Shown: positions 5,966-16,520 of the stretch, in pieces
Position numbering within the stretch: the first letter of the stretch is position 1
Layout: every line of letters begins with the position of its first letter
Assembly: GCA_964350985.1 (NCBI GenBank)
Contig: CAYGLK010000001.1
Span: forward strand, 158,636-222,635
Direction of reading: 5' to 3'
Length of the DNA: 64,000 bases
Origin: an uncultured Candidatus Saccharibacteria bacterium
Lineage (GTDB): Bacteria; Patescibacteriota; Minisyncoccia; Phycocordibacterales; UBA918
Position numbers and translations under genes: made by a program
Notes under the pieces: model-generated
Told to the model about the DNA's origin: nothing
Seen by the model: the letters and a program-made list of their open reading frames with translations, nothing else
Database searches by the model: none

Positions 5966-7309
5966 TTAATATATTCTTTCCATATCCGCACCGTCTGAGT
6001 AAATGATCTGAGCTCTACTGTCCTTAATTCTCTTGAATGTAATTACTTCTCCTGGTGAACCGTAACCAATCTTGTCTTGGTTTTTGAACGAGTGTTGTTT
6101 AACTTTTTTATACTTTGACCAAGCTTGCACAGGATTAGGTGCTGAAGCCCCAAATCCAACCAAATCATCTCCTGTACTTACAATCACCTTGTCACCCCAT
6201 CGGTTGCGATACAAGCCTGAGTAGGGCTCATTAGAAATAGATTTTATATCCTTTGTGTTCTTGAGGTCATAAATTAACCTCATTAAATTATCACTAACAG
6301 CTCCAGCAGTGTTTGATTGTGTATTGGTAAGGACAATTACCTGAACATTATCCTCAATATGGCTGATGGCATTAGTTACATATCCTGCAAAACCTCCTGA
6401 GTGTCCGTAGGTCTGTTGACCTGTGACCGCTTCGATGCAAAGCCCTAATCCATACATTTCGTCCTTATTCACAATACTTTGTACCTGACGCATCGCTTTT
6501 CTAGACTCTCTATTGAGTGCGCTCTTCTTACTATCAGGATGTAAAGATGATAAAAACAAAGCCAAGTCTTGCACATTTGAAATAAATCCAGTTGCAGGAG
6601 CATAGGCATTTGTTTTAATGTTAGGCTCTTTTTGTCGGTCTGTCACATCTGGTGTCCAGCGTTCATACCCTATAGTTAGTTTTGCTGGTATCTTATCCGG
6701 TAAATCTGGAAGAGTATTTTTTAATCCGAGTGGTTTGGTGATATTTTCAGTGACATATTTATCATAAGAGTCACCAGATACTTTCTCTATAACAGCTCCA
6801 AGTATGGAGTACCCATGATTTGAGTACTTCATGGTTGTAGCATTATCAAACACAATTGCTTTTGAAGAGACCGTACCCTCAAGCTTAGTTGGAAACTTAT
6901 CATTTACCCATTGCTGTGCCTCACCATCTCGGAAGAGTCCAGCACTATGCGAGAGTAGCTGCCGGATAGTGATGTTAGAAAGATCAGTTTCTTTAGTCTT
7001 ACCCTTAAACCAAGATAAATAATCAGAGACTTTATCATCGAGTTGAAGTTTACCTTTTTCTTGGAGCTGCATGATACTTACAGCTGTAAACATTTTAGAC
7101 ATTGAAGCAACTCGAAATTGTGCATCTTTCTTCATCTCGACATCTTTTTCAATATCAGATAGTCCAAAGGCATTAATATATTTCGGTACACCATTAACCG
7201 CAATGCAAACTACCGCACCCGGAGTATGATCGTAACGGATCTTCATCGGTAGCCAGTTGTCTACAATTTTACCTGCTACTTTGATTGCTTCAGCTAATTC
7301 TTTTTTCAT
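5966..7309 (-). CDS. beta-lactamase-related serine hydrolase (class-C beta-lactamase/esterase family, PF00144-like), cytoplasmic
   Basis: SxxK motif FRVASMSKMF, YxN motif YSNHGY, HxG motif HSGGFAGY. The track ORF starts at 7369 (GTG) inside repeat A; the MKKELAEAIK Met at 7309 is the more likely start. No signal peptide. Confidence 0.75.
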   Translation of the reverse strand: MKKELAEAIKVAGKIVDNWLPMKIRYDHTPGAVVCIAVNGVPKYINAFGLSDIEKDVEMKKDAQFRVASMSKMFTAVSIMQLQEKGKLQLDDKVSDYLSWFKGKTKETDLSNITIRQLLSHSAGLFRDGEAQQWVNDKFPTKLEGTVSSKAIVFDNATTMKYSNHGYSILGAVIEKVSGDSYDKYVTENITKPLGLKNTLPDLPDKIPAKLTIGYERWTPDVTDRQKEPNIKTNAYAPATGFISNVQDLALFLSSLHPDSKKSALNRESRKAMRQVQSIVNKDEMYGLGLCIEAVTGQQTYGHSGGFAGYVTNAISHIEDNVQVIVLTNTQSNTAGAVSDNLMRLIYDLKNTKDIKSISNEPYSGLYRNRWGDKVIVSTGDDLVGFGASAPNPVQAWSKYKKVKQHSFKNQDKIGYGSPGEVITFKRIKDSRAQIIYSDGADMERIY

Positions 7310-7324
7310 AATAAAAAGTATACC

Positions 7325-7420
7325 AGAGGTTCGAACCTTCGATAAAGGTATAAAAAAGAACCGCCACACCTTGAGGAAGGTGGGACGGCTATGTCCTTTC
7401 TTCCACTAGTGTGGTGGCCT
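7325..7420 (+). repeat. Family-1 intergenic repeat, copy A: tRNA-3'-end-like palindrome GGTTCGAACC + TATAAAAAAG + long GC hairpin. It reads as a Rho-independent terminator on the minus strand, downstream of the 7423..7881 gene.
   Basis: Shares gaggttcgaaccttcgataaaggtataaaaaagaaccgcc with copies D and F. The hairpin arms ccgccacac/gtgtggtgg and the inner arms aggaca/tgtcct are compensatory relative to copy B. A-run 7351-7357 is the U-tract on the minus strand. Confidence 0.55.
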
Positions 7421-9079: not shown

Positions 9080-9099
9080 AACAAAATTATAGCAGAAGT

Positions 9100-9160
9100 A
9101 AAAACCACACTTGCGTGTGGCCTAACTTTTATATGCTCCACATAGTGGACGAGATTAGAA
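9100..9160 (+). repeat. Family-2 modular repeat, copy J: type-b hairpin module + GCTCC-N6-TGGACGAG. Lies in a divergent promoter region.
   Basis: accacacttgcgtgtggcctaacttttatatgctcc is identical to the module in copy I (15650-15690), followed by acatagtggacgagattagaaac. Confidence 0.55.
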
Positions 9161-9194
9161 ACAGTATATCTAGTGTATAATTAAGCTCACAGAT

Positions 9195-9980
9195 ATGAAG
9201 ATTTACTCCTGGAACGTCTTATTCAAGAATAAGAAGCTCGACAACGTTCTTGCTTTCATTGAAAAGCTAGATTTTGATATTCTCACTCTCCAAGAAGTCT
9301 CTGAAGAGTTGTTGGAAAGACTAAAACAGCTTCCTTATAGTCTTGCATCCAGCACAGATAAGGTTCGTATAGATGAATTTGGAAAAAATTTCACTGATTC
9401 GCTCGTGATCCTTTCTCGATATTCTATAGTCCAGCAAGAATCTATTTTATTTCCAGCGGAGTGGTATCAAGAACCTGTCGCATGGCAGTCGAAGCTAGCG
9501 AGAAAATTATTGAGTTGGAGGCATTCGTATAAAAGCAGAAGCGGTCTCCGTGTCGAAGTATTTTTACCAGATTCTAAACGTATCCAAATAGTCTGTGCTC
9601 ATCTCGCAATCGTATTTGCTACCCCTGAAACTCGTCAGATGGAGTTTGATTTTTTGATGCAGAAGCGGAATAATGAACTACCCGTTATCTTTTGTGGAGA
9701 TTTTAATATCTTGGAACTACCTCACATAACTCTTCTGAATTGGCTATCTGGTGGAAAGTTAAGTGATTGGATGTTCTGGTGGGGAGAGCGACAAACCTTC
9801 GAGAATAAATTTCAGGAATATTTTTTGCAAAATCCTCTCAAAGGGATGATGACCCATCCCATCGCCATATCTCAGATTGATCACATTCTTATTCCAAAAG
9901 ATTTCCAAGTCATCTCGAAAAAAGTCTTGCGTAGCAAGTTCGGTTCCGATCATAATCCGGTGATGGTGGAAGTGGACTAG
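9195..9980 (+). CDS. endonuclease/exonuclease/phosphatase (EEP) family protein
   Basis: N-terminus MKIYSWNVL..DILTLQEV and C-terminus GSDHNPVMVEV are the classic EEP (PF03372) terminal motifs. Confidence 0.8.
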   Translation: MKIYSWNVLFKNKKLDNVLAFIEKLDFDILTLQEVSEELLERLKQLPYSLASSTDKVRIDEFGKNFTDSLVILSRYSIVQQESILFPAEWYQEPVAWQSKLARKLLSWRHSYKSRSGLRVEVFLPDSKRIQIVCAHLAIVFATPETRQMEFDFLMQKRNNELPVIFCGDFNILELPHITLLNWLSGGKLSDWMFWWGERQTFENKFQEYFLQNPLKGMMTHPIAISQIDHILIPKDFQVISKKVLRSKFGSDHNPVMVEVD

Positions 9981-10030
9981 AGAGCAAAAAAGAAACACAA
10001 TAGCCAGAAAGAATGCTTTTCATGTTGGAT

Positions 10031-10112
10031 GCTCCGCTGGGTGAGGGAAGTTCGAACTTTAGTATAAAAAGAAACCGCTCGTGAAGACGCGGTGTCTTAC
10101 GAACGGTTTTGC
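10031..10112 (+). repeat. Family-1 repeat, copy D: GCTCCGCTGGGTGAGGGAAGTTCGAACTTTAGTATAAAAAG + hairpin. Acts as a bidirectional terminator between the convergent genes 9195..9980 (+) and 10120..10389 (-).
   Basis: Motif conserved in copies E and F. Hairpin aaaccg..gaagacgcggtgtcttc..cggtttt is followed by TTTT on the plus strand and preceded by an A-run, which gives a U-tract on the minus strand. Confidence 0.55.
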
Positions 10113-10119
10113 AGACTCT

Positions 10120-10389
10120 TTAGAACATCTGATACGGCACTGCATTTCCTGGAATTCGAGTGAGAATCATTCCGCAGCCATATCGACCTTTAATGGTCGG
10201 CACAACAATGCGAGAACTGATCTGTCTCTTTCCCAGTCCGATGACTTGGTAGCTGGCTGCAGATACTGGGAAAACGGTTGCTATTCCCAGGATTACCAGC
10301 CCTCCTTTTGGAAGTCGTTCTTGCGCAACCGCTCCTGATTGGTACCACTTGCGCCAAAAACGGCGATCAGTTTTTTTGCTCTGGTTCAT
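10120..10389 (-). CDS. hypothetical small protein (89 aa) in a GC-rich segment
   Basis: Track ORF. An overlapping plus-strand ORF of similar size (10081..10338) exists, so the strand assignment is uncertain. Confidence 0.35.
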   Translation of the reverse strand: MNQSKKTDRRFWRKWYQSGAVAQERLPKGGLVILGIATVFPVSAASYQVIGLGKRQISSRIVVPTIKGRYGCGMILTRIPGNAVPYQMF

Positions 10390-10451
10390 GACACATTCTC
10401 CCTTTGGACAAATTTAACAATAGCACAATAAATGTATTATGTCAATATTTG

Positions 10452-10553
10452 TCCCGCTGAGTCAGGGGAAATGACGACAAGTTTTGTATAAAAAACCGCC
10501 GCACCGTGGGGAAGTCAGGACAGTTGTCCTTTCTTCCACTAGGTGTGGCGGCA
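10452..10553 (+). repeat. Family-1 repeat, copy B (degenerate 5' part + TATAAAAAA + long hairpin). A minus-strand terminator for the 10626..11225 gene.
   Basis: gctgagtcaggggaaatgacgacaagttttgtataaaaaaccgccgcacc...gtggggaagtcaggacagttgtcctttcttccactaggtgtggcggc. The hairpin is homologous to copy A with compensatory base changes. Confidence 0.5.
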
Positions 10554-10625
10554 TGTGTCAGGAACTGCCGGACAGCCCCAGATAGAGCATTTTGTCATTA
10601 GCAGCTGCGGTACATCATCTCACAA

Positions 10626-11225
10626 CTAATCCTCGTCGCCGATTTCGGATTTGATGTTGATCGTAATGACGTGCGGGGCAGTCTGCTGTCCTGAAAGGAA
10701 CAAGAGCCAAGAAAGACCGACGAGCTGTTGCTTGGTGTGTTCAACCCCCAGCAAATCAAGAGCAAGCGACAGTTGATCAGGTGAGTAATTAACCTCACCA
10801 TTTCTGATTATCCCTGCGATCGCCGGGAAGAGAGGACCGTTTTTGAAGCCGTCAACATCGCCCTGATTCAAGTGATGCCGCAACTGTTCCTCCCTGGGTA
10901 CAGCAGCGTATTCCGCTGCCGCATCTTGAGCACCACCTCGCTCATGAGTGATCTCTTCACTGTACCAAGGAGGTACGTCTCCGTCGCAGTCGACCAAGAC
11001 ATTGTCTTTATGGCTCCAAATGAATGGATTACATCTCACGTCCGGCGCGGAAATCGGAAGTTCAGTCGATGGAAATGACAAAAAGACTTCACCTTGGTCG
11101 CCGACACGGAGTACTGTGACTTGAAACATCGTTGCTTCGTCTGCACTCGGATCTGGCTTGAAAGGTACAATCAGCAGATCACCTGCTGAAAGTGAGGTGA
11201 ACAACTTTTTTGGGCTCGTTGGCAT
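10626..11225 (-). CDS. hypothetical protein (199 aa), GC-rich relative to its surroundings
   Basis: Track ORF; no family recognised. Confidence 0.5.
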   Translation of the reverse strand: MPTSPKKLFTSLSAGDLLIVPFKPDPSADEATMFQVTVLRVGDQGEVFLSFPSTELPISAPDVRCNPFIWSHKDNVLVDCDGDVPPWYSEEITHERGGAQDAAAEYAAVPREEQLRHHLNQGDVDGFKNGPLFPAIAGIIRNGEVNYSPDQLSLALDLLGVEHTKQQLVGLSWLLFLSGQQTAPHVITINIKSEIGDED

Positions 11226-11344
11226 CAGATTTTCCTCTAGTTGTGGCTGAGATGGCTTTGATTACGTGCACCATAAGGAGCACTTTGTTTTTATACTATA
11301 ATTTATATCTAATGTCAATTTAACATTGTAATGTCTAAACACAT

Positions 11345-11480
11345 CTGTCACTTTCTCCATTGGAGCACAGAAAAATCCCCAAGAGGGGATTTGTTCAATG
11401 CTCCCTCAACTGGACGCATTCAGAACCTCAAACTGGAGGCGAATACAACAAGAATTGGAAATGAGTGGAATTTTAGGACA
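11345..11480 (+). repeat. Family-2 modular repeat, copy H: partial 5' module + type-a hairpin module + GCTCC-N6-TGGACG..TTCAGAAC + tail AAGAATTGGA..GAGTGGAATTTT
   Basis: gtcactttctccattggagcacagaaaaatccccaagaggggatttgttcaatgctcc is identical to the module in copy G. Its tail matches copy I (agaattgga...gagtgggatttt). Confidence 0.55.
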
Positions 11481-11588
11481 GTTTGAAAATGTTCAACTTC
11501 AGAACTCGTAATTGGAGGAAAGCTCAAATGTAATAAAATTCACTGAATTAATTCTGTAATCTATAGTGGCAAATGCTATTATTTAACT

Positions 11589-12278
11589 ATGAAACTAGAG
11601 CAACTATTACCCAAGAAAGAAACAGCGGAAAAACTTTCGGTAGATTTAGAAACAGTTCTGGATGATCTTGAGGGATTGGATGCAGAAGATTTAATAAATG
11701 CACCCCGTGAATATATTCTCAAAGGAAAAATACTAGCTAGACAGCTCAAACAGATTAGAACACTCGGGGTAGAATTTACAGTCTCTGGAGAAAAGGATCG
11801 TTTAGTTTTATCTACAGGTTCAGTCGGTTGTACTGAGCCTGACCCCAGAGCGTATATACAAGCTCTGATAGACGATAATAAAGAGTTCCCATCGGTTACA
11901 GAAAGAATTCAAACATCTCCACTCAGTATGCATTCACACGACTCTGAGATTGGGGTTGTTCCAAGTATTCCAGATATCATTGCCCTGAGAAACGCTGTAA
12001 ATTCTGCAAGTCTACTTTTTACCAGCGAGGGAATACTGTCATACTCTTGGAATAAAGATTTTGATGTGGAGCAAAAGTTCTTGTCTTTTTTAGAGATAAA
12101 ATACCCAGTTGAAAATATTTTTGACGTCGATACGTTTTATGAACTAGACAAACCAAGACAGATAGAACTCCTTTCTGACTTTTACAATAATTTTGACGTA
12201 CTCATCAAAAAAGCGACTTGGGATGAAGAAGAAAAGTGCCAAGCTATATTAGATCAATATTTTAGTCAGAATAGCTAA
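11589..12278 (+). CDS. hypothetical protein (229 aa)
   Basis: Track ORF; no family recognised. Confidence 0.55.
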   Translation: MKLEQLLPKKETAEKLSVDLETVLDDLEGLDAEDLINAPREYILKGKILARQLKQIRTLGVEFTVSGEKDRLVLSTGSVGCTEPDPRAYIQALIDDNKEFPSVTERIQTSPLSMHSHDSEIGVVPSIPDIIALRNAVNSASLLFTSEGILSYSWNKDFDVEQKFLSFLEIKYPVENIFDVDTFYELDKPRQIELLSDFYNNFDVLIKKATWDEEEKCQAILDQYFSQNS

Positions 12279-12305
12279 AGTAACACTTTACAATTCTTTA
12301 CAAAA

Positions 12306-12345
12306 GCTCCGCTGGGTGAGGGATGTTCGAACTTTAGTGTAAAAT
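12306..12345 (+). repeat. Family-1 repeat, copy E (core without the hairpin)
   Basis: gctccgctgggtgagggatgttcgaactttagtgtaaaatt, almost identical to copy D. Confidence 0.55.
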
Positions 12346-12449
12346 TAGAAAGCAATACATGAAGAATTGGGGTTTATTCGCACTTCAGAATCTGTTTGTA
12401 TACAAGCCACACTAGTCTGATATACTTTAATCATAAATAACATTAAATT

Positions 12450-13388
12450 ATGGAAGAATTTTCAAGATCATCTAAAGAAATGAAATCTAATTATGAGAGG
12501 GCTATGGTCAATTATGGTGATGAAGACTTATCAAAAGATGGAACAATGGAGAAGGACCAAGTCTTTCCAACTGCTTTTATCACATCACGTTGTTTTGCGG
12601 AGCAGACTGATATTCCAAATGCCAAAGAGTTATACGCCTCATTCTGCGATCAAATGGGTTTCGTGAAAGGAGAGAATGAACCAGATCAAATAGATACACC
12701 ACATTTTATGGAACTCAGGTATCTGTCTACTGAAAAAGTATTAAAAGAGGCGGTTAAAAATGAAGGAGTTACTCAGGTTGTTGAATTAGCTTCTGGTTTC
12801 ACTCCACACTCAGTAAATTTACTTACTTCAGTAGAGGGAATTAATAATTACATTGAAAATGACTTTGCTGTTAATCTTGATGTGAAAAAGAAAGCCGTAA
12901 ATGATTTTGTAGGAGGTATTCCCGTAGCCTTTGTTCCTGGAAATGCAGTGGAACAGGAAACTTGGGAAAAAATCGAAGCTCAGTTAACAGATGAACCAGT
13001 GGCAATATTTTGTGAGGGTTTAATGATGTATCTCTCTCGCGATCAGCAAATAGAGTTTTTTAATAACATCAAAGAAGTACTTAAGAAAAAGGGTGGTTTC
13101 TTTATGCATGAAGATATTCTTAAATACCATCCAGAACTAAAAGAAAATCCAAGATTTGCCAGGATAACAAACAAATTGAAAGCTATAAGTAGTAATACTG
13201 CTTTAGACGAAGCCTTTACTCAAGAAGGAGTGACTCAATTCTATGAAAGTCTCGGTTTTGTTGTTGACCGTGTTCCAGAAGATGTCCCGTTAAGTATTGA
13301 TAGCTACCCTGAACACACTCGAGAGAACGCAAGAGAATTACAGACAGCTGGCTTTCAGATGTGGAAACTAAGTTTGCCTAAGGAGTAA
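12450..13388 (+). CDS. class I SAM-dependent O-methyltransferase, leucine-carboxyl-methyltransferase (LCM/TcmP)-like
   Basis: VVELASGFTPHS resembles LCM motif I (VVNLGAGLDTR), and PVAIFCEGLMMYLSRDQQIEFFNNIKEVLKKGGFFMHE resembles the LCM (EGLLMYL) region. Confidence 0.5.
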   Translation: MEEFSRSSKEMKSNYERAMVNYGDEDLSKDGTMEKDQVFPTAFITSRCFAEQTDIPNAKELYASFCDQMGFVKGENEPDQIDTPHFMELRYLSTEKVLKEAVKNEGVTQVVELASGFTPHSVNLLTSVEGINNYIENDFAVNLDVKKKAVNDFVGGIPVAFVPGNAVEQETWEKIEAQLTDEPVAIFCEGLMMYLSRDQQIEFFNNIKEVLKKKGGFFMHEDILKYHPELKENPRFARITNKLKAISSNTALDEAFTQEGVTQFYESLGFVVDRVPEDVPLSIDSYPEHTRENARELQTAGFQMWKLSLPKE

Positions 13389-14090
13389 TTCAGCTATTGC
13401 CTCAGGGTTGGAAAACATAGCCTCATGATCTGCATCAATTGTCATTATTTCTGCAGCGTTTGGTAAAAGAGAAATTATTTCATCAAAGGTTTCTTTTTGT
13501 AATGAGATATCATTTTGACACTTTACATAAATAACTGGAACTTTTGTTTGCTGGAAAGAATCAAGTACAACTATCTCCTCGTAGGGTTTAATTGGTTGAG
13601 GTTCAAGTTTAGATAAGAAGTCATTTAATTCATCAGAGTCCGGGCTGCTGTTAAATAAACCTTGTCTTATTTTCTCTATGTTTGGAGGAATTGATTTGTC
13701 AGCACGATTGGACGCAATTTGTCTGTATTTTTCTTGAACTTCGGAAGGAAGGAGTGAGGAAAAGGCTTTATTTTTTAAGATAACCGAAGTGAGAAAAAAC
13801 GCCTTGTTTATCTTTTCTGGTATTTTTTCAATTACTTTAGAAATAGTTATTCCACCTAGGCTATGACTTACTAATACAATATCATTCAATTTATTTGAAT
13901 TTATATAATCTATTACATAGTTTATATAATCATCTATACAAACATCTTCTTTTTTAATTGAGTCATTCAATCCGTTTCCTGGTAAATCCAGAGTATGGCA
14001 AATGAATTTGTCATTTGGTATCAAATTTATTACCTCATTCCAACACCATCCAGCATGATACGCACCGTGGACGAAAAGTATATTTTGCAT
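13368..14090 (-). CDS. alpha/beta-hydrolase, SABP2/methylesterase-like
   Basis: N-terminus ILFVHGAYHAGWCW is the SABP2/MES-family signature. GxSxG nucleophile elbow VSHSLGG. Catalytic His region DADHEAMFSNPE. The 3' end overlaps the 12450..13388 gene convergently by about 20 nt. Confidence 0.75.
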   Translation of the reverse strand: MQNILFVHGAYHAGWCWNEVINLIPNDKFICHTLDLPGNGLNDSIKKEDVCIDDYINYVIDYINSNKLNDIVLVSHSLGGITISKVIEKIPEKINKAFFLTSVILKNKAFSSLLPSEVQEKYRQIASNRADKSIPPNIEKIRQGLFNSSPDSDELNDFLSKLEPQPIKPYEEIVVLDSFQQTKVPVIYVKCQNDISLQKETFDEIISLLPNAAEIMTIDADHEAMFSNPEAIAELLLRQT

Positions 14091-14167
14091 AAATATAATT
14101 ATATCAAAAGTTTTATGTTCTGTTTTAGTAACAAAAAATAACCTTGTTTTGCAAGGTTATTTTTGTT

Positions 14168-14250
14168 GCTCCGTCATGGGATGAAGTTCGAACTTTAATA
14201 TAAAAAGACCGCCCAAAGGAAGTCTTCCCTTAAGCGGTTGATTGTGAGAA
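14168..14250 (+). repeat. Family-1 repeat, copy F: GCTCCGTCATGGGATGAAGTTCGAACTTTAATATAAAAAG + hairpin. A minus-strand terminator for the 40-aa peptide gene.
   Basis: Hairpin accgc..aggaag tc ttccct..gcggt preceded by an A-run on the plus strand, which is a U-tract on the minus strand. Confidence 0.5.
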
Positions 14251-14253
14251 GAG

Positions 14254-14376
14254 CTAGCCATCATCGTCGTCGTCATTCCACAGAAGAGAAAGAGCGACAC
14301 CAATAGCCACTCCGACAGTGATATTGTCCATTGCAACCCCGATGGCTATGCCTACAGCTAATCCTAAGGGATTCAT
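14254..14376 (-). CDS. small hydrophobic glycine-zipper membrane peptide (40 aa) with a poly-Asp C-terminal tail
   Basis: Own translation: MNPLGLAVGIAIGVAMDNITVGVAIGVALSLLWNDDDDDG. A GGAGG Shine-Dalgarno sits 5 nt upstream of the ATG, and a TTGACA-17-TATATT promoter lies about 35-60 nt upstream. The peptide is below the track's 60-aa cutoff. Confidence 0.45.
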   Translation of the reverse strand: MNPLGLAVGIAIGVAMDNITVGVAIGVALSLLWNDDDDDG

Positions 14377-14409
14377 TCCAGACCTCCATAACTTTTCTTG
14401 ACTACTCAA

Positions 14410-14452
14410 AATATATCATATTATTGTCATATTGTCAATTTGCTCCGGCAGT
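14410..14452 (-). promoter_or_regulatory. sigma70-like promoter (TTGACAATA-N-TATATT) for the 40-aa peptide gene, abutting a degenerate tRNA-Asn 3'-end-like segment (GCTCCGGCAGTAAG)
   Basis: Minus-strand reading: TTGACA (14438-14433), 17-nt spacer, TATATT. The same arrangement (tRNA-3'-like GCTCCGGC.GTA.G next to TTGACAATA) recurs at 16143-16203. Confidence 0.4.
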
Positions 14453-14602
14453 AAGCAAAGCTTTCTATCCTACACTCACAAGAACTAAGTAAAAGTGAAC
14501 TTTGACTTAGCTTGTTCGTTTGAATAGTAGGAATTTCTCTTGTTACACAAGCAGTACACCTTTTGGATTTTCTTTTCGTAAACTCAAGAAAATACTCAAA
14601 AG

Positions 14603-14716
14603 CTTTTCGAATCCTAACGAAAGTGACTTATGTCACTTTCTCCGCCGAAGCACAGAAAAATCCCCAAGAGGGGATTTGTTCAATGCTCCGCGTGCTGGAC
14701 GAGTTTCGAACCTTGG
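14603..14716 (+). repeat. Family-2 modular repeat, copy G, full length: TTTCGAATCCTAACGAA + hairpin AAAGTGAC/GTCACTTT + CTCCGCCGAAGCAC + type-a hairpin AAATCCCC/GGGGATTT + GCTCC-N6-TGGACGAG-TTTCGAACC
   Basis: The 5' two-thirds align with copy I with compensatory hairpin changes (AAAGTGAC..GTCACTTT vs AACGTGAC..GTCACGTT). The central hairpin is identical to copy H. Confidence 0.55.
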
Positions 14717-14771
14717 ATTGGTTAAATATTGAAAACGATTTGAGGTATTTTGATATTGCTCTAACGAAATG

Positions 14772-14800
14772 AGACCCTGCGGTGTATTGCAGGGTCTCGT
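14772..14800 (-). terminator. stem-loop terminator candidate downstream of the 14824..15405 gene
   Basis: gagaccctgc-ggtgtattg-cagggtctc is a 10-bp perfect stem right after the gene's stop, followed by a T-rich stretch on the minus strand (atttcgtt). Confidence 0.4.
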
Positions 14801-14823
14801 GTCGGTCTTACCGACGGGGTTAT

Positions 14824-15405
14824 TCAGGCATATGGACGGCGCAGTGGGTTTTGTCCCAACGGAGCACGAAGGTGTTCAGGGACTTCATTACCGAACAGCT
14901 CGCGATACTCCATTGGAGCAAGGCCGTAACGCCGCACAATGTCAGCGAAGACCCGCAGACCTACCTCGCTGTCGATGTGATACGACGTGACGAAAGGCTT
15001 GCCTTCGCTGGAGGGATCATCGACGAACCTGTTGCCTTGAGACTCTAGCAAGTTGACGAGGCTTTCGTCCGTCGGGCGCTCTGAATTGGCATACAAGACA
15101 TGGCCTTGGTCATCAAGACGCGTGATCCACTCTTCGGGGGGCAGGCAACCGCAGTGGCCAGCGACCCGAATGTCGGTTTTGCCAACAGGGTCGGCGTAGA
15201 GTGCCCGTGCGATTTCGAGTGGTACGCGACAGTTGACGACCCAGTAGCACCAGCCACGCTTGAAGGTCATATCGCCTAGCTTGCCGATGACCGAGTAGGG
15301 CACTTCTGTATTACCCCTCTTGATGTCCACGGCGTCGATGTAACTGCGAGCAAGCTCGCGTCGGATATCTTCGTCGCAGGTTGCGACACCAGCCAGGTTC
15401 TTCAT
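14824..15405 (-). CDS. hypothetical protein (193 aa), markedly GC-rich; probably recently acquired
   Basis: Longest ORF in the segment. The plus-strand ORFs 14769..14990 and 14782..15048 overlap it and are judged spurious. Confidence 0.55.
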   Translation of the reverse strand: MKNLAGVATCDEDIRRELARSYIDAVDIKRGNTEVPYSVIGKLGDMTFKRGWCYWVVNCRVPLEIARALYADPVGKTDIRVAGHCGCLPPEEWITRLDDQGHVLYANSERPTDESLVNLLESQGNRFVDDPSSEGKPFVTSYHIDSEVGLRVFADIVRRYGLAPMEYRELFGNEVPEHLRAPLGQNPLRRPYA

Positions 15406-15587
15406 GGTGCAGTCCTCTCTGTGGTGAACGGAAAATCAAACCAAATAATTCACTATTTATAGTGTATTGTCAATAGTGCTCCGCAGGTGGGAATTTCGGT
15501 CACGAGTTACTAAGCTTTTTATTTCACTTAGCTCATAAAAATCTAAGTACTCTCGACCCCGGCTCATTCGCCTACGGCATCATTCCG

Positions 15588-15780
15588 CCTTTCGAATCCT
15601 AACGAACGTGACGTTTAGTCACGTTCTCCGCCGGAGCATATAAAAGCAAAGACCACACTTGCGTGTGGCCTAACTTTTATATGCTCCCTAAGCTGGACGG
15701 GTTCAGAACTCTTGGTGCAGGAATTTAGACGAGCAAATTGGTCACTAATTCAGAAAGAATTGGATCGGAGTGGGATTTTG
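15588..15780 (+). repeat. Family-2 modular repeat, copy I, full length with the type-b hairpin module and a long tail
   Basis: tttcgaatcctaacgaacgtgacgtttagtcacgttctccgccggagcata + taaaagcaaagaccacacttgcgtgtggcctaacttttata + tgctccctaagctggacgggttcagaac + tail agaattggatcggagtgggatttt. Confidence 0.55.
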
Positions 15781-15879
15781 TATTTTTATCAAAGTCAGGT
15801 ACTTCAGAACTATATTGTATAAAAGAAAGAGGCCCGTTGATGTTATCGCAGGGCCCCGTGACGGCAATACCGTCGGGCG

Positions 15880-16101
15880 TCAGAAGCTGATGATCTCGCC
15901 CTGCGGACCCCAAACCATTCCCATGGTCATGGTCATCGTCATGCCATGACTGGTGTGACTGGTCGATGTCAGAGCGGCGGCCGCACCATTGAAGCCTGCT
16001 TCAGTGAGGCGACGACGGATCTCGTCATGAGACCCTCCCTTGCACTTCTTGGCAAGATCGGTCGCTTCGTCCTTGGTGAGTTTGTGAAAGGGCTTATCGG
16101 C
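15880..16101 (-). CDS. small protein (73 aa from MADKPF..). The N-terminus resembles a Rho_N/HeH-like helical DNA/RNA-binding fold, and the C-terminus carries an MTMTMTMGM tract.
   Basis: A GGAGA Shine-Dalgarno sits 6 nt upstream of the ATG at 16101, and a TTGACA-17-TATAGT promoter lies upstream. The track's longer start (16137) falls inside the promoter palindrome. The LTKDEATDLAKK...EIRRRLTEAGF layout is only weakly family-like. Confidence 0.45.
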   Translation of the reverse strand, partial: ADKPFHKLTKDEATDLAKKCKGGSHDEIRRRLTEAGFNGAAAALTSTSHTSHGMTMTMTMGMVWGPQGEIISF

Positions 16102-16131
16102 CATTCGTGTTCTCCGAGTTAATGGGTGAAA

Positions 16132-16171
16132 TGACAATACCTACTATATCATATATAGTAGGTATTGTCAA
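16132..16171 (-). promoter_or_regulatory. 39-bp near-perfect palindrome containing the sigma70-like promoter TTGACA-17-TATAGT for the 15880..16101 gene; a possible operator
   Basis: tgacaatacctactatat-ca-tatatagtaggtattgtca: arms of about 17 bp are perfectly complementary. The -35 and -10 elements read off the minus strand. Confidence 0.45.
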
Positions 16172-16177
16172 TATAAA

Positions 16178-16203
16178 GCTCCGGCGGTAGGATTCGAACC
16201 TAC
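16178..16203 (-). repeat. Perfect 26-nt direct repeat of the tRNA-Asn 3' end (T-arm + acceptor 3' strand), att-site-like
   Basis: gctccggcggtaggattcgaacctac is identical to 16309-16334 inside and abutting the tRNA, 131 bp away, in the same orientation. Confidence 0.8.
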
Positions 16204-16276: not shown

Positions 16277-16292
16277 ACGACCAACTCGTTAA
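16277..16292 (-). repeat. 16-nt duplicate of the tRNA-Asn anticodon-arm region
   Basis: acgaccaactcgttaa is identical to 16335-16350 within the tRNA gene. Confidence 0.5.
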
Positions 16293-16309
16293 GGGGAATC
16301 ATTTTTGGG

Positions 16310-16381
16310 CTCCGGCGGTAGGATTCGAACCTACGACCAACTCGTTAACAGCGAGCTGCTCTACCGCTGAGCTACGCCGGA
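16310..16381 (-). tRNA. tRNA-Asn (anticodon GTT), 72 nt; CCA not encoded
   Basis: Manual cloverleaf: TCCGGCG-TA-GCTC-AGCGGTA-GAGC-A-GCTCG-CTGTTAA-CGAGT-TGGTC-GTAGG-TTCGAAT-CCTAC-CGCCGGA-G. It has a 7-bp acceptor stem, a D-loop with GG, a TTCGAAT T-loop and anticodon GTT. Confidence 0.88.
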
Positions 16382-16501
16382 GCCCAAAAATTATTCATTA
16401 TTTAAATTTTAACAGCTCACCTTCTTACAGAAGCTGTTCAGGTTGTCGCCATTGTCATGGCTGGCAACCTCTTGCGAAAGCCTACAAGGCTTTCTCACTC
16501 C

Positions 16502-16520
16502 ACCGCTCCGCTACGCCGGA
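16502..16520 (-). repeat. Degenerate partial copy of the tRNA-Asn 5' half (acceptor 5' strand + D-arm), located upstream of the intact gene
   Basis: caccgctccgctacgccgga vs the tRNA's taccgctgagctacgccgga: about 17/20 identical. Confidence 0.45.

Follow-up and report, generated by a model that had tools for sequence, protein, structure and literature searches.

The stretch of DNA analysed here (64,000 nt of contig CAYGLK010000001.1, hereafter the window) is part of a Patescibacteria chromosome of the Paceibacteria/Parcubacteria type, and it carries downstream of a tRNA-Asn gene an island of at least 11 small cassettes (4.2-16.3 kb), in which a repeat designated family 2 occurs four times (copies G, H, I and J). 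The island is quite probably an integron-like cassette array at a tRNA gene and the family-2 repeats would be the seams between neighbouring cassettes, an arrangement for gene capture that is apparently undescribed. An earlier note had presented the repeat as a mosaic element with swappable hairpin modules, either a structured RNA or regulatory cassette or a set of recombinogenic element ends. The four copies are present where it placed them and are non-random, the mosaic of separable modules is borne out, and the option of recombinogenic ends was essentially right. The note overlooked the tRNA-Asn gene and the fact that two of the modules (A and B) copy or mimic the 3' end of a tRNA; the conserved element also starts some 90-165 nt upstream of the start assigned to it, at 14441 in G and at 15477 in I. 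That element, named alpha (with a relative, beta), is a conserved structured nucleic-acid element.

In the repeat search G and H were 83% identical over 88 nt and I and J 85% over 65 nt, while G and I shared the start TTTCGAATCCTAACGAA (26 nt, 92%). The motif TGCTCC-N6-TGGACG-N3-TYMGAA has exactly four mismatch-free matches on the + strand, at 9134, 11399, 14684 and 15682, with none expected from 100 shuffles. Up to TGCTCC, 41 of 45 positions are identical between G and H and 37 of 45 between I and J, and exactly there identity falls from 82-91% to 52-67%, in every pairing and whatever the hairpin on the left. Because identity breaks at this point, the central hairpin and the B-module must have separate histories, joined at TGCTCC, and for that reason the modules look shuffled. 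The family-2 repeat thus appears to be a seam at which the A-module and hairpin of one cassette meet the B-module of the next. The opposite idea, that A-module, central hairpin, B-module and tail make up a single unit, a structured RNA or regulatory cassette whose central hairpin exists in two interchangeable versions, is hardly credible, even if the modules recur four times in the same order, the first hairpin covaries and all hairpins are stable. Besides the break at TGCTCC, the real tRNA-Asn occupies the B position in locus L005 (L numbers denote the other loci compared), the A side is joined to a different class of site in L006 and L008, and in L041 the B-module ends a protein-coding cassette and homology stops at that same point. 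Moreover, A and B lie on opposite strands relative to tRNA polarity and no Rfam family matches.

Several structural details of the earlier description hold. The first hairpin is compensatory (AAAGTGAC/GTCACTTT in G versus AACGTGAC/GTCACGTT in I, both of -13 to -15 kcal/mol with z = -5 to -7.6), and the central hairpins, one version identical in G and H and the other in I and J, are strong folds (z = -4.8 to -8.6). The conserved architecture claimed for all copies is only partly so, since CTCCGCCGGAGCA is exact in I alone, with CTCCGCCGAAGCA in G and CTCCATTGGAGCA in H, the first hairpin is reduced in H to its 3' half, and J is without any A-module. A structured family does exist, namely the alpha element that contains the A-module, but it does not extend to the whole repeat. 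The island proteins on either side of the copies are mutually dissimilar, which disposes of a shared promoter region of one duplicated gene family.

The modules can be described relative to the 3' end of tRNA-Asn, whose reverse complement, GCTCCGGCGGTAGGATTCGAAC, is the prototype for all B-type sites. The A-module is a tRNA 3' end on the opposite strand (TTCGAATCCTA, a 26-nt hairpin and CCGCCGGAGCA), and as delimited in the earlier note it is the final 50 nt of alpha. The B-module is one class of pseudo-tRNA 3' end. Read from the sequences, the B-sites all share the geometry T-loop (7 nt), T-stem strand (5), acceptor strand (7) and discriminator (1), then (N)GGAGCA, a motif in which the real tRNA-Asn ends as well. 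The family-1 site, which in the tRNA sense reads TTCGAAC TTCCC TCACCCA G + CGGAGC, is another such class; with its GCTCCGCTGGGTGRRGGAWGTTCGAAC, followed by ...TATAAAAA and a terminator, it is conserved in the window, L006, L008, L039 and L040 despite their differing tRNA-Asn. The central hairpin is predicted to be the intrinsic terminator of the neighbouring cassette. Hairpin 2, a G+C-rich stem-loop followed by a T-run, was predicted as a terminator on the minus strand in both I and J, and hairpin 1 (-15 to -18 kcal/mol) is flanked by A- and T-runs, the T-run lying partly within the stem, hence its absence from the terminator scan. Both are more stable in the tRNA sense than in the alpha sense.

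Read in the tRNA sense, a cassette runs from promoter through gene, terminator and spacer to the pseudo-tRNA end and GGAGC(A). Fifteen small unrelated genes, of 33-57% GC, lie between 4.2 and 16.3 kb; the units measure 0.13-1.9 kb. Most hold a single gene equipped with a promoter and terminator of its own; one has two convergent and another two co-directional genes. Nine sites of the form GCTCC-N4-20-TTCRRAM lie on the + strand between 8.3 and 16.3 kb, where 1.3 would be expected, intergenic GCTCC sites are found in one orientation 11 times versus 5 in the other, and strong minus-strand promoters abut GCTCC sites at 16171, 15473, 14438 and 10445. The B-module of copy I is the terminal site of a cassette (15683-16177) whose 85-aa gene (15880-16137) has its own promoter (16171-16143; 11/12) and a candidate operator. 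That of H starts a cassette with a 229-aa gene on the + strand (11400-12305), and that of J one with a gene of the endonuclease/exonuclease/phosphatase family (cassette 9135-10030, gene 9195-9980).

The cassette borders are established by two comparisons. Strains of a related species (L016-L025) are collinear except beside the 3' end of tRNA-Asn. There, L018 and L020 have a hairpin and TTCTT directly abutting the tRNA (TGCTCCCCGGG), whereas in L016 and L019 a 1.5-kb cassette with a beta-lactamase-family gene is inserted at the tRNA 3' end, this being the sole difference. The insert consists, from its distal side, of TGCTCGAATGGAGGGACGCTTTCCGAAC (a relative of the B-module), promoter, gene, AAGTTCGAATCCTCG, terminator and TTTTATTT, followed by TGCTCCCCGGG; its T-loop-like motif and terminator are on the tRNA-proximal side and the junction repeat is TTTGCTC (7 nt). 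A third haplotype has a polysaccharide deacetylase gene in place of this cassette. Between species, the tRNA-Asn island of L041 encodes a homologue, 87% identical, of the 193-aa protein next to copy G, and the DNA is 89.6% identical over 750 nt (window 15433 to 14685 versus L041 3972-4721). The homology ends exactly at GCGGAGC, that is, at the end of B-module G, past which the window has hairpin 1 and alpha and L041 the promoter of a different cassette. On the upstream side, both cassettes open with a TTGACA promoter right after GGAGCA and the promoters align, BLAST homology beginning about 45 nt inside the cassette, near the ribosome-binding site. The unit of homology between species is one 790-bp cassette, and together the two comparisons place the cassette borders at GCTCC.

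The junctions of other loci agree with separable units. Locus L005, syntenic with the window, has the A-module and hairpin 1 facing a complete tRNA-Asn where the window has a B-module, the hairpin lying between alpha and the tRNA; in L006 the B position is taken by a family-1 site, and in L008 the A-module is fused to a family-1 site within a common CTCCGC. In many independent assemblies, contigs break off at the 3' end of tRNA-Asn, as would be expected of a hypervariable site. The repeats break assemblies: L001 (Logan ERR3534985_64076), a short-read contig of this organism, stops within hairpin 2 of copy I (window ~15658), and further pieces of the island form contigs of 1-2 kb on their own. 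Exact-match look-ups of cassette proteins from the window yielded nothing beyond fragments of that sample.

It might be argued that this is an ordinary tRNA-anchored island, where large integrase-bearing elements (phage-like, integrative and conjugative element-like or tycheposon-like) inserted repeatedly at tRNA-Asn and decayed, leaving attL/attR scars and cargo and implying no cassette-level recombination system. An exact 26-nt repeat of the tRNA 3' end, a partial copy of the anticodon arm and an older tRNA 5' remnant do lie beside the tRNA, and additive islands that adjoin a tRNA and contain partial tRNAs are well known (10.1101/2020.12.28.424599). This explanation is nevertheless improbable. 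Most B-sites were never a tRNA-Asn 3' end, as their acceptor strands differ, yet they keep the tRNA-like geometry and GGAGCA, and they are conserved across species with differing tRNA-Asn. The insertion that distinguishes strains is a single 1.5-kb gene with its crossover 3' of the tRNA and not in the T-loop or anticodon loop, the interspecies unit is one 790-bp cassette, and the island open reading frames (ORFs) compared with Pfam (19 island and flanking ORFs, most of those of at least 80 aa) gave no integrase or phage remnants. As for flanks made up of a full tRNA and an identical partial 3' copy, the picture is mixed: the 26-nt copy (16178-16203) provides them, and all other borders are non-identical mimics. 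That copy bounds a gene-less insert of 105 nt, which includes the piece of anticodon arm (16279-16294).

Table 1. Coordinates of the elements, sites and tRNA sequences of the island in the window.
Feature	Position	Strand	Basis or description
Copy J	9096..9161		hairpin type 2 9096-9133, B-module 9134-9161
Family-1 site, GCTCCGCTGGGTGAGGGAAGTTCGAAC-TTTAG-TATAAAA	10031..10069	-	repeat search
Further family-1 copies	12306-12344, 14167-14205; degenerate 10452-10494		
Copy H	11345..11426		alpha 3' stub 11345-11367 (broken within P5), hairpin type 1 11368-11398, B-module 11399-11426
Alpha element, copy G	14441..14652	+	R1 match 115.7 bits; covariation
Central hairpin type 1, copy G, AAAAATCCCC-AAGA-GGGGATTT	14653..14683		folding
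B-module, copy G	14684..14711		end of 193-aa cassette
Complete mobile cassette	14685..15477	-	TTGACA promoter, 193-aa gene (14824-15405, 57% GC), terminator (14771-14798), conserved spacer, B-module
Beta element, copy I, gene-less	15477..15638	+	R1 match 63 bits; homologous 5' region in L009, L010
Central hairpin type 2, copy I, terminator-like	15639..15681		-29.3 (tRNA sense) vs -21.1 kcal/mol
B-module, copy I	15682..15710	-	tRNA sense TTCTGAA CCCGT CCAGCTT A + GGGAGCA
Exact 26-nt copy of tRNA-Asn 3' end	16178..16203	-	repeat search, 100% identity
tRNA-Asn(GTT), island anchor	16306..16382	-	ARAGORN; Rfam tRNA 73 bits
Alpha-like fragment fused to older tRNA-Asn 5' remnant (16498-16520)	16420..16520	+	R1 20.9 bits

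Alpha and beta are gene-less and roughly 135-210 nt long. Alpha was found in copy G of the window and in L004, L005, L006, L008, L007 (twice), L029, L030, L039 and L041 (three in tandem). The metagenome scan gave six loci carrying the A-module, the scan of the genome collection a single match, in Patescibacteria bacterium UBA661, and the scan of viral contigs none. From its 5' end, which is the reverse complement of a tRNA 3' end (TGCTCCGGCGGTAGGA), alpha proceeds through AATTTC, the hairpin P3, CAGTAYAC, the stem P4 enclosing a variable hairpin, TTTTCGAATCC-TA and the hairpin P5 to an acceptor-like 3' end. Copy G starts with TGCTCCGGCAG and has a 75-nt insertion before the conserved core (14517-14652), where P1b, P3 with its TTACA loop, P4 with the variable inner hairpin, the T-loop-like TTCGAATCC, P5 and the acceptor-like end follow each other. 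Beta (copy I of the window, L009 and L010) has ends and P5 as in alpha and a different interior; in copy I its 5' end is TGCTCCGCAGGTGGGAATTTC, similar to a tRNA 3' end and in B orientation, and its 3' end is the A-module with TTCGAATCCTA and CCGCCGGAGCA on either side of the 26-nt hairpin.

A covariance model, R1, was built from nine copies. It recovers 15 matches, which in the window are confined to the tRNA-Asn locus (14.4-16.5 kb), the sole other match, at 35.6 kb, being at chance level (E 0.87). Compensatory pairing was well above that of the controls. Over 13 distinct alpha sequences, 86% of the cells are paired versus 40-49% in slid controls, 23 of 36 pairs show changes on both sides versus 5-8, and the covariation score is 0.41 versus at most 0.12, with none of 500 shuffles reaching the observed values, although the alignment was fitted to the model and several of the 13 sequences are related. 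Covariation is strong in P3, P4 and P5; P5 is 98% paired with seven of its nine pairs compensatory, and the closing helix P1 is less regular (67% paired). The stems of P3, always around the loop TTACA, comprise CTTG/CAAG, TCCA/TGGA, CATC/GATG, GATCC/GGATC, GAAGC/GCTTC, CCCA/TGGG, CGGC/GCCG and GAAAC/GTTTC.

The ends of alpha and beta follow the adjacent tRNA in every context seen. The tRNA 3' end that is followed reads CCTA/CCGCCGGAGC for tRNA-Asn, CCTG/CCCGGGGAGC for a variant of that tRNA, CCTA/GCGGAAGCA for tRNA-Arg and TTCGATTCTCC/TACGCCGCA for tRNA-Gly, P5 being inserted in most copies after base 4 of the T-stem 3' strand. Wherever the contig includes a full tRNA, the element faces its 3' end. 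Since the ends track the tRNA, alpha mimics the acceptor/T-arm minihelix of its neighbour. It also has the borders of a cassette, one end being of B type and oriented like the array and the other carrying a terminator, and would itself be a cassette devoid of cargo. In L010 (203-1202) a single 112-aa gene lies between convergent tRNA-Gly and tRNA-Arg genes, each faced by its own tuned beta; hence, the arrangement is not limited to tRNA-Asn.

Alpha and beta, without the B-module, could alternatively be the gene of a small RNA, a mimic of a tRNA minihelix transcribed convergently with the tRNA up to a shared bidirectional terminator and carried as cargo of the array, which might serve in tRNA 3'-end biology, as a decoy or as a recombinase guide. 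This is possible, if doubtful; it is compatible with the cassette array and competes only with alpha being a structure of recombining DNA. The strong covariation of P3, P4 and P5 would suit an RNA, and so would the invariant unpaired GGAATTTC, GTAYAC, TTCGAATCC and TTACA loop together with an inner hairpin of variable length, which are typical of RNAs. Hairpins with A- and T-tracts on both sides follow alpha in L005, L030 and L039, G-U pairs outnumber A-C pairs 5:1 in the alpha-sense strand, and a possible promoter (TTGACT-18-TATTGT, 14398-14427) precedes copy G. However, the other copies have no consistent promoter upstream, that of L030 beginning right after a terminator, the central hairpins are stabler in the tRNA sense, the tandem and truncated copies of L041 and L007 resemble mobile DNA, and a free-standing RNA helix would not need ends that track the neighbouring tRNA gene.

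The inverted-repeat ends of alpha, with hairpins about 20 nt from the 5' and about 11 nt from the 3' end, recall miniature transposon-like elements with subterminal hairpins (miniature inverted-repeat or palindrome-associated transposable elements of the IS200/IS605, IS110 or IS91 type) that would have nothing to do with cassette exchange. Such hairpin spacing resembles the end geometry of IS200/IS605. That alpha belongs to them is very unlikely: P3 and P5 are unlike each other, P3 covaries freely and hence is no site that a transposase would recognise by its sequence, the ends differ according to the tRNA, the copies of the window are confined to the tRNA-Asn locus with the elements facing the tRNA 3' end, and no tnpA, tnpB or DEDD genes were found among the Pfam-tested ORFs of the window or the neighbours of the element in L004 and L006-L008.

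Other candidates were discarded. Ends like those of IS200/IS605 or of Helitrons, a retron and an IS110 bridge RNA do not fit in geometry or in associated genes; for the IS110 bridge/seek RNA, both target-like segments cover the same stretch of the tRNA and not adjacent halves. An intron-bearing or split tRNA is excluded by the absence of a D or anticodon arm, ARAGORN being negative; an invertible promoter switch was rejected for lack of a convincing internal promoter, the covarying hairpins favouring structure, and integron attC sites for lack of any R-box pattern in the island. A scan with the P5 hairpin pattern gave five matches, all in one family of phage structural genes with no tRNA context, and these were taken as coincidence. 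At the gathering threshold, Rfam detects in the window tRNA-Asn only, and at E<=1 in seven element-bearing loci it returns tRNAs and chance-level matches, no family fitting alpha.

How such an array would grow can be outlined from these features. New cassettes would be added by recombination within or beside the GGAGC/GCTCC core, either of the tRNA 3' end or of a pseudo-end already present, so that the newest cassette would adjoin the tRNA. At a seam, the start of one cassette (its terminator hairpin and, in G and I, a whole gene-less alpha or beta) would abut the pseudo-tRNA end (B-module) of the next. The ends of alpha or beta would pair to mimic the acceptor and T-arm minihelix of the adjacent tRNA, P5 interrupting the T-stem strand and the covarying P3 and P4 taking the place of the 5' side of the T-loop. 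It appears moderately likely that strands are exchanged at or beside the GCTCC core by a recombinase encoded in trans, which would act on a circular cassette and on either the tRNA 3' end or an existing pseudo-end; the best support for this step comes from the 7-nt junction repeat of L016/L019 and the exact borders within the window and in L041. For alpha the inferred role is either that of a folded substrate of recombination or a decoy attachment site, in the manner of a folded attC, or that of a small RNA. The fuller proposal is advanced tentatively: a tRNA-mimicry gene-capture system of Paceibacteria with the tRNA 3' end as primary site, cassettes ending in a pseudo-tRNA end and GGAGCA, a recombinase in trans and an active alpha, whether as a substrate in folded single-stranded form, as a decoy attachment site or as an RNA that guides or scaffolds the recombinase, re-tuned to tRNA-Asn, tRNA-Arg or tRNA-Gly.

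Several observations weigh against the cassette array and its mechanism. No integrase or transposase was detected with Pfam in the tested ORFs of the 12-kb island, in 10 more ORFs of the window (271-429 aa) or near the elements in L004, L006, L007 and L008, so the catalytic step is purely deduced. The sole recombinase-like gene in any island codes for a transposase of the rve family (DDE) in the tRNA-Asn island of a Nomurabacteria locus (L040 8007-9029), with no evident link to borders. The comparisons yielded only one clean insertion polymorphism and one interspecies cassette. Conservation is lacking in the left half of the crossover site and no inverted core sites are obvious, which is atypical for tyrosine recombinases. 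In several cassettes no GGAGC end can be recognised, or the junctions are degenerate or truncated (H, L008, L029, and the second and third alpha of L041), implying that the array is shaped by illegitimate deletions as well. Cassettes could pass from strain to strain through uptake of DNA and homologous recombination, with no dedicated enzyme. The 5:1 ratio of G-U to A-C pairs in the alpha helices only weakly favours the alpha-sense strand.

Among known systems, the array resembles integrons (attI x attC cassette capture, including sedentary chromosomal integrons and CALIN arrays), with which it shares small, mostly single-gene cassettes of mixed GC, end sites in one orientation (the 11 GCTCC sites), insertion beside a fixed primary site (L016 versus L018, and the L041 border), a family of sites conserved more in shape than in sequence and the occurrence of gene-less cassettes; folded alpha also resembles folded attC in its closing stem with the crossover motif, extrahelical element and variable terminal structure. 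It differs in that the primary site is a tRNA 3' end and the cassette sites are pseudo-tRNA 3' ends, not palindromes, and in that the cassettes carry their own strong promoters and terminators with genes in either orientation. No intI lies beside the array, as neither Phage_integrase nor any other recombinase domain was found by Pfam in the 19 island and flanking ORFs or the 10 additional ones, and the attC pattern RYYYAAC...GTTRRRY has no match in the 12.1-kb island against eight in the remaining 47.7 kb. In Acinetobacter plasmids, pdif modules are bounded by 28-bp XerC/XerD sites of alternating orientation; they are likewise small gene modules without recombinase and with short border sites, presumably moved by a host enzyme in trans. 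Here the border sites are mimics of tRNA 3' ends, they are in direct orientation and they lie at a chromosomal tRNA gene.

With tycheposons and other additive tRNA islands the array has in common its growth from the 3' side of the tRNA, the partial tRNA 3' copies at borders, a heterogeneity that peaks beside the tRNA and a streamlined host with few classical mobile elements. The tycheposons of Prochlorococcus are several kb long and have an integrase and hallmark replication genes as their defining features (10.1101/2020.12.28.424599). In contrast, the units described here are of 0.13-1.9 kb, neither integrase nor hallmark replication domains were found in the tested island ORFs, the crossover is 3' of the tRNA body, the borders are non-identical tRNA mimics and an inverted, structured tRNA-mimic element accompanies the tRNA. 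Alpha itself can be compared with tRNA-like RNAs (the tRNA-like domain of tmRNA, YrlA and Y-RNA-like RNAs, viral tRNA-like structures), given its acceptor-like stem stacked on a T-stem and its T-loop sequence TTCGAAT. It differs from them in having no equivalents of the D and anticodon arms, a hairpin inside the T-stem strand and an acceptor that varies with the neighbouring tRNA gene, and it is detected neither by ARAGORN as a tRNA nor by Rfam. No description of such arrays or of alpha and beta was found in the literature searched, and the arrangement, a site-specific accretion of cassettes at a tRNA gene, may include a structured element that is new.

The Patescibacteria (candidate phyla radiation) have tiny genomes with few recognised mobile elements, and how they acquire accessory genes is largely obscure. 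A tRNA-anchored cassette array would offer a concrete and testable route of gene flow in a large part of the bacterial tree, for promoter-bearing single genes that include beta-lactamase-family, hydrolase, methyltransferase and toxin-antitoxin genes between borders conserved across species, and it would account for the breaking of metagenome assemblies at tRNA-Asn. Alpha is a new structured family, unusual in that its ends co-vary with the neighbouring tRNA gene, and as a recombination substrate or guide it would provide a new way to specify an integration site.

The surroundings of the anchor tRNA and some of the cargo deserve mention. Right of tRNA-Asn lie housekeeping genes (glutaredoxin-like, S30AE, fmt, def, mreB, aminoacyl-tRNA synthetases and mur genes), and the glutaredoxin-like protein has homologues labelled Parcubacteria, Paceibacterota or Nomurabacteria; beyond the island on the left there is a very large minus-strand ORF. 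The tRNA-Asn that is intact is not the original one: the older 5' remnant (16498-16520) is located 116 nt rightward, where other species keep their tRNA, and the segment 16498-16698 is syntenic with the tRNA 5' flank of other species. The gap between intact tRNA and remnant (16383-16520) contains the alpha-like fragment, with P3 (CTTC-TTACA-GAAG), P4 and a P5-like hairpin (GAAAGCCT/AGGCTTTC). In two related species tRNA-Asn is split in the anticodon loop, by about 270 nt in L041 (3196-3525) and about 650 nt in L040 (9030-9760), the latter encoding a 106-aa ORF; ARAGORN calls no tRNA at either locus, and the insertions are probably group I introns.

Among the cargo, a beta-lactamase-family gene (PF00144) is common to the tRNA-Asn islands of two species (window 5966-7369 versus L016 8244-9587, 68% amino acid identity), in opposite orientation, at a different distance from the tRNA and with unrelated flanks. 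Beside alpha in a related metagenome (L006 1052-2441, L008 1949-3382), cassettes carry an AbiEii toxin gene preceded by a 206-aa gene, which has no Pfam match and resembles an AbiEi antitoxin, and an AAA_14/DUF4143 ATPase, a cargo of defence or addiction type as in integron arrays. For 10 island proteins of the window PADLOC gave no match. The strong promoter of the 85-aa gene is overlapped by a perfect 18-nt inverted repeat, TGACAATACCTACTATAT/ATATAGTAGGTATTGTCA (window 16132-16170), that looks like an autoregulatory operator. A tail is common to H (to ~11530) and I (to ~15812): its AAGAATTGG...GAGTGGRATTTT belongs to a module of ~130 nt ending in a second ACTTCAGAAC motif (11427-11530, 15711-15812), of which a third, partial copy (12342-12406) follows the family-1 site at 12306, and the module may be a further gene-less mini-unit. 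Finally, an imperfect hairpin of ~70 nt (ACCGCCRCACC...GTCCTTTCTTCC...GTGTGGYGG) is found after TATAAAAA, 3' of GC-rich cassette genes, in two species (window 7345-7420 and 10490-10560; L039 1925-1990 and 5170-5240), its conservation exceeding what a plain terminator needs.

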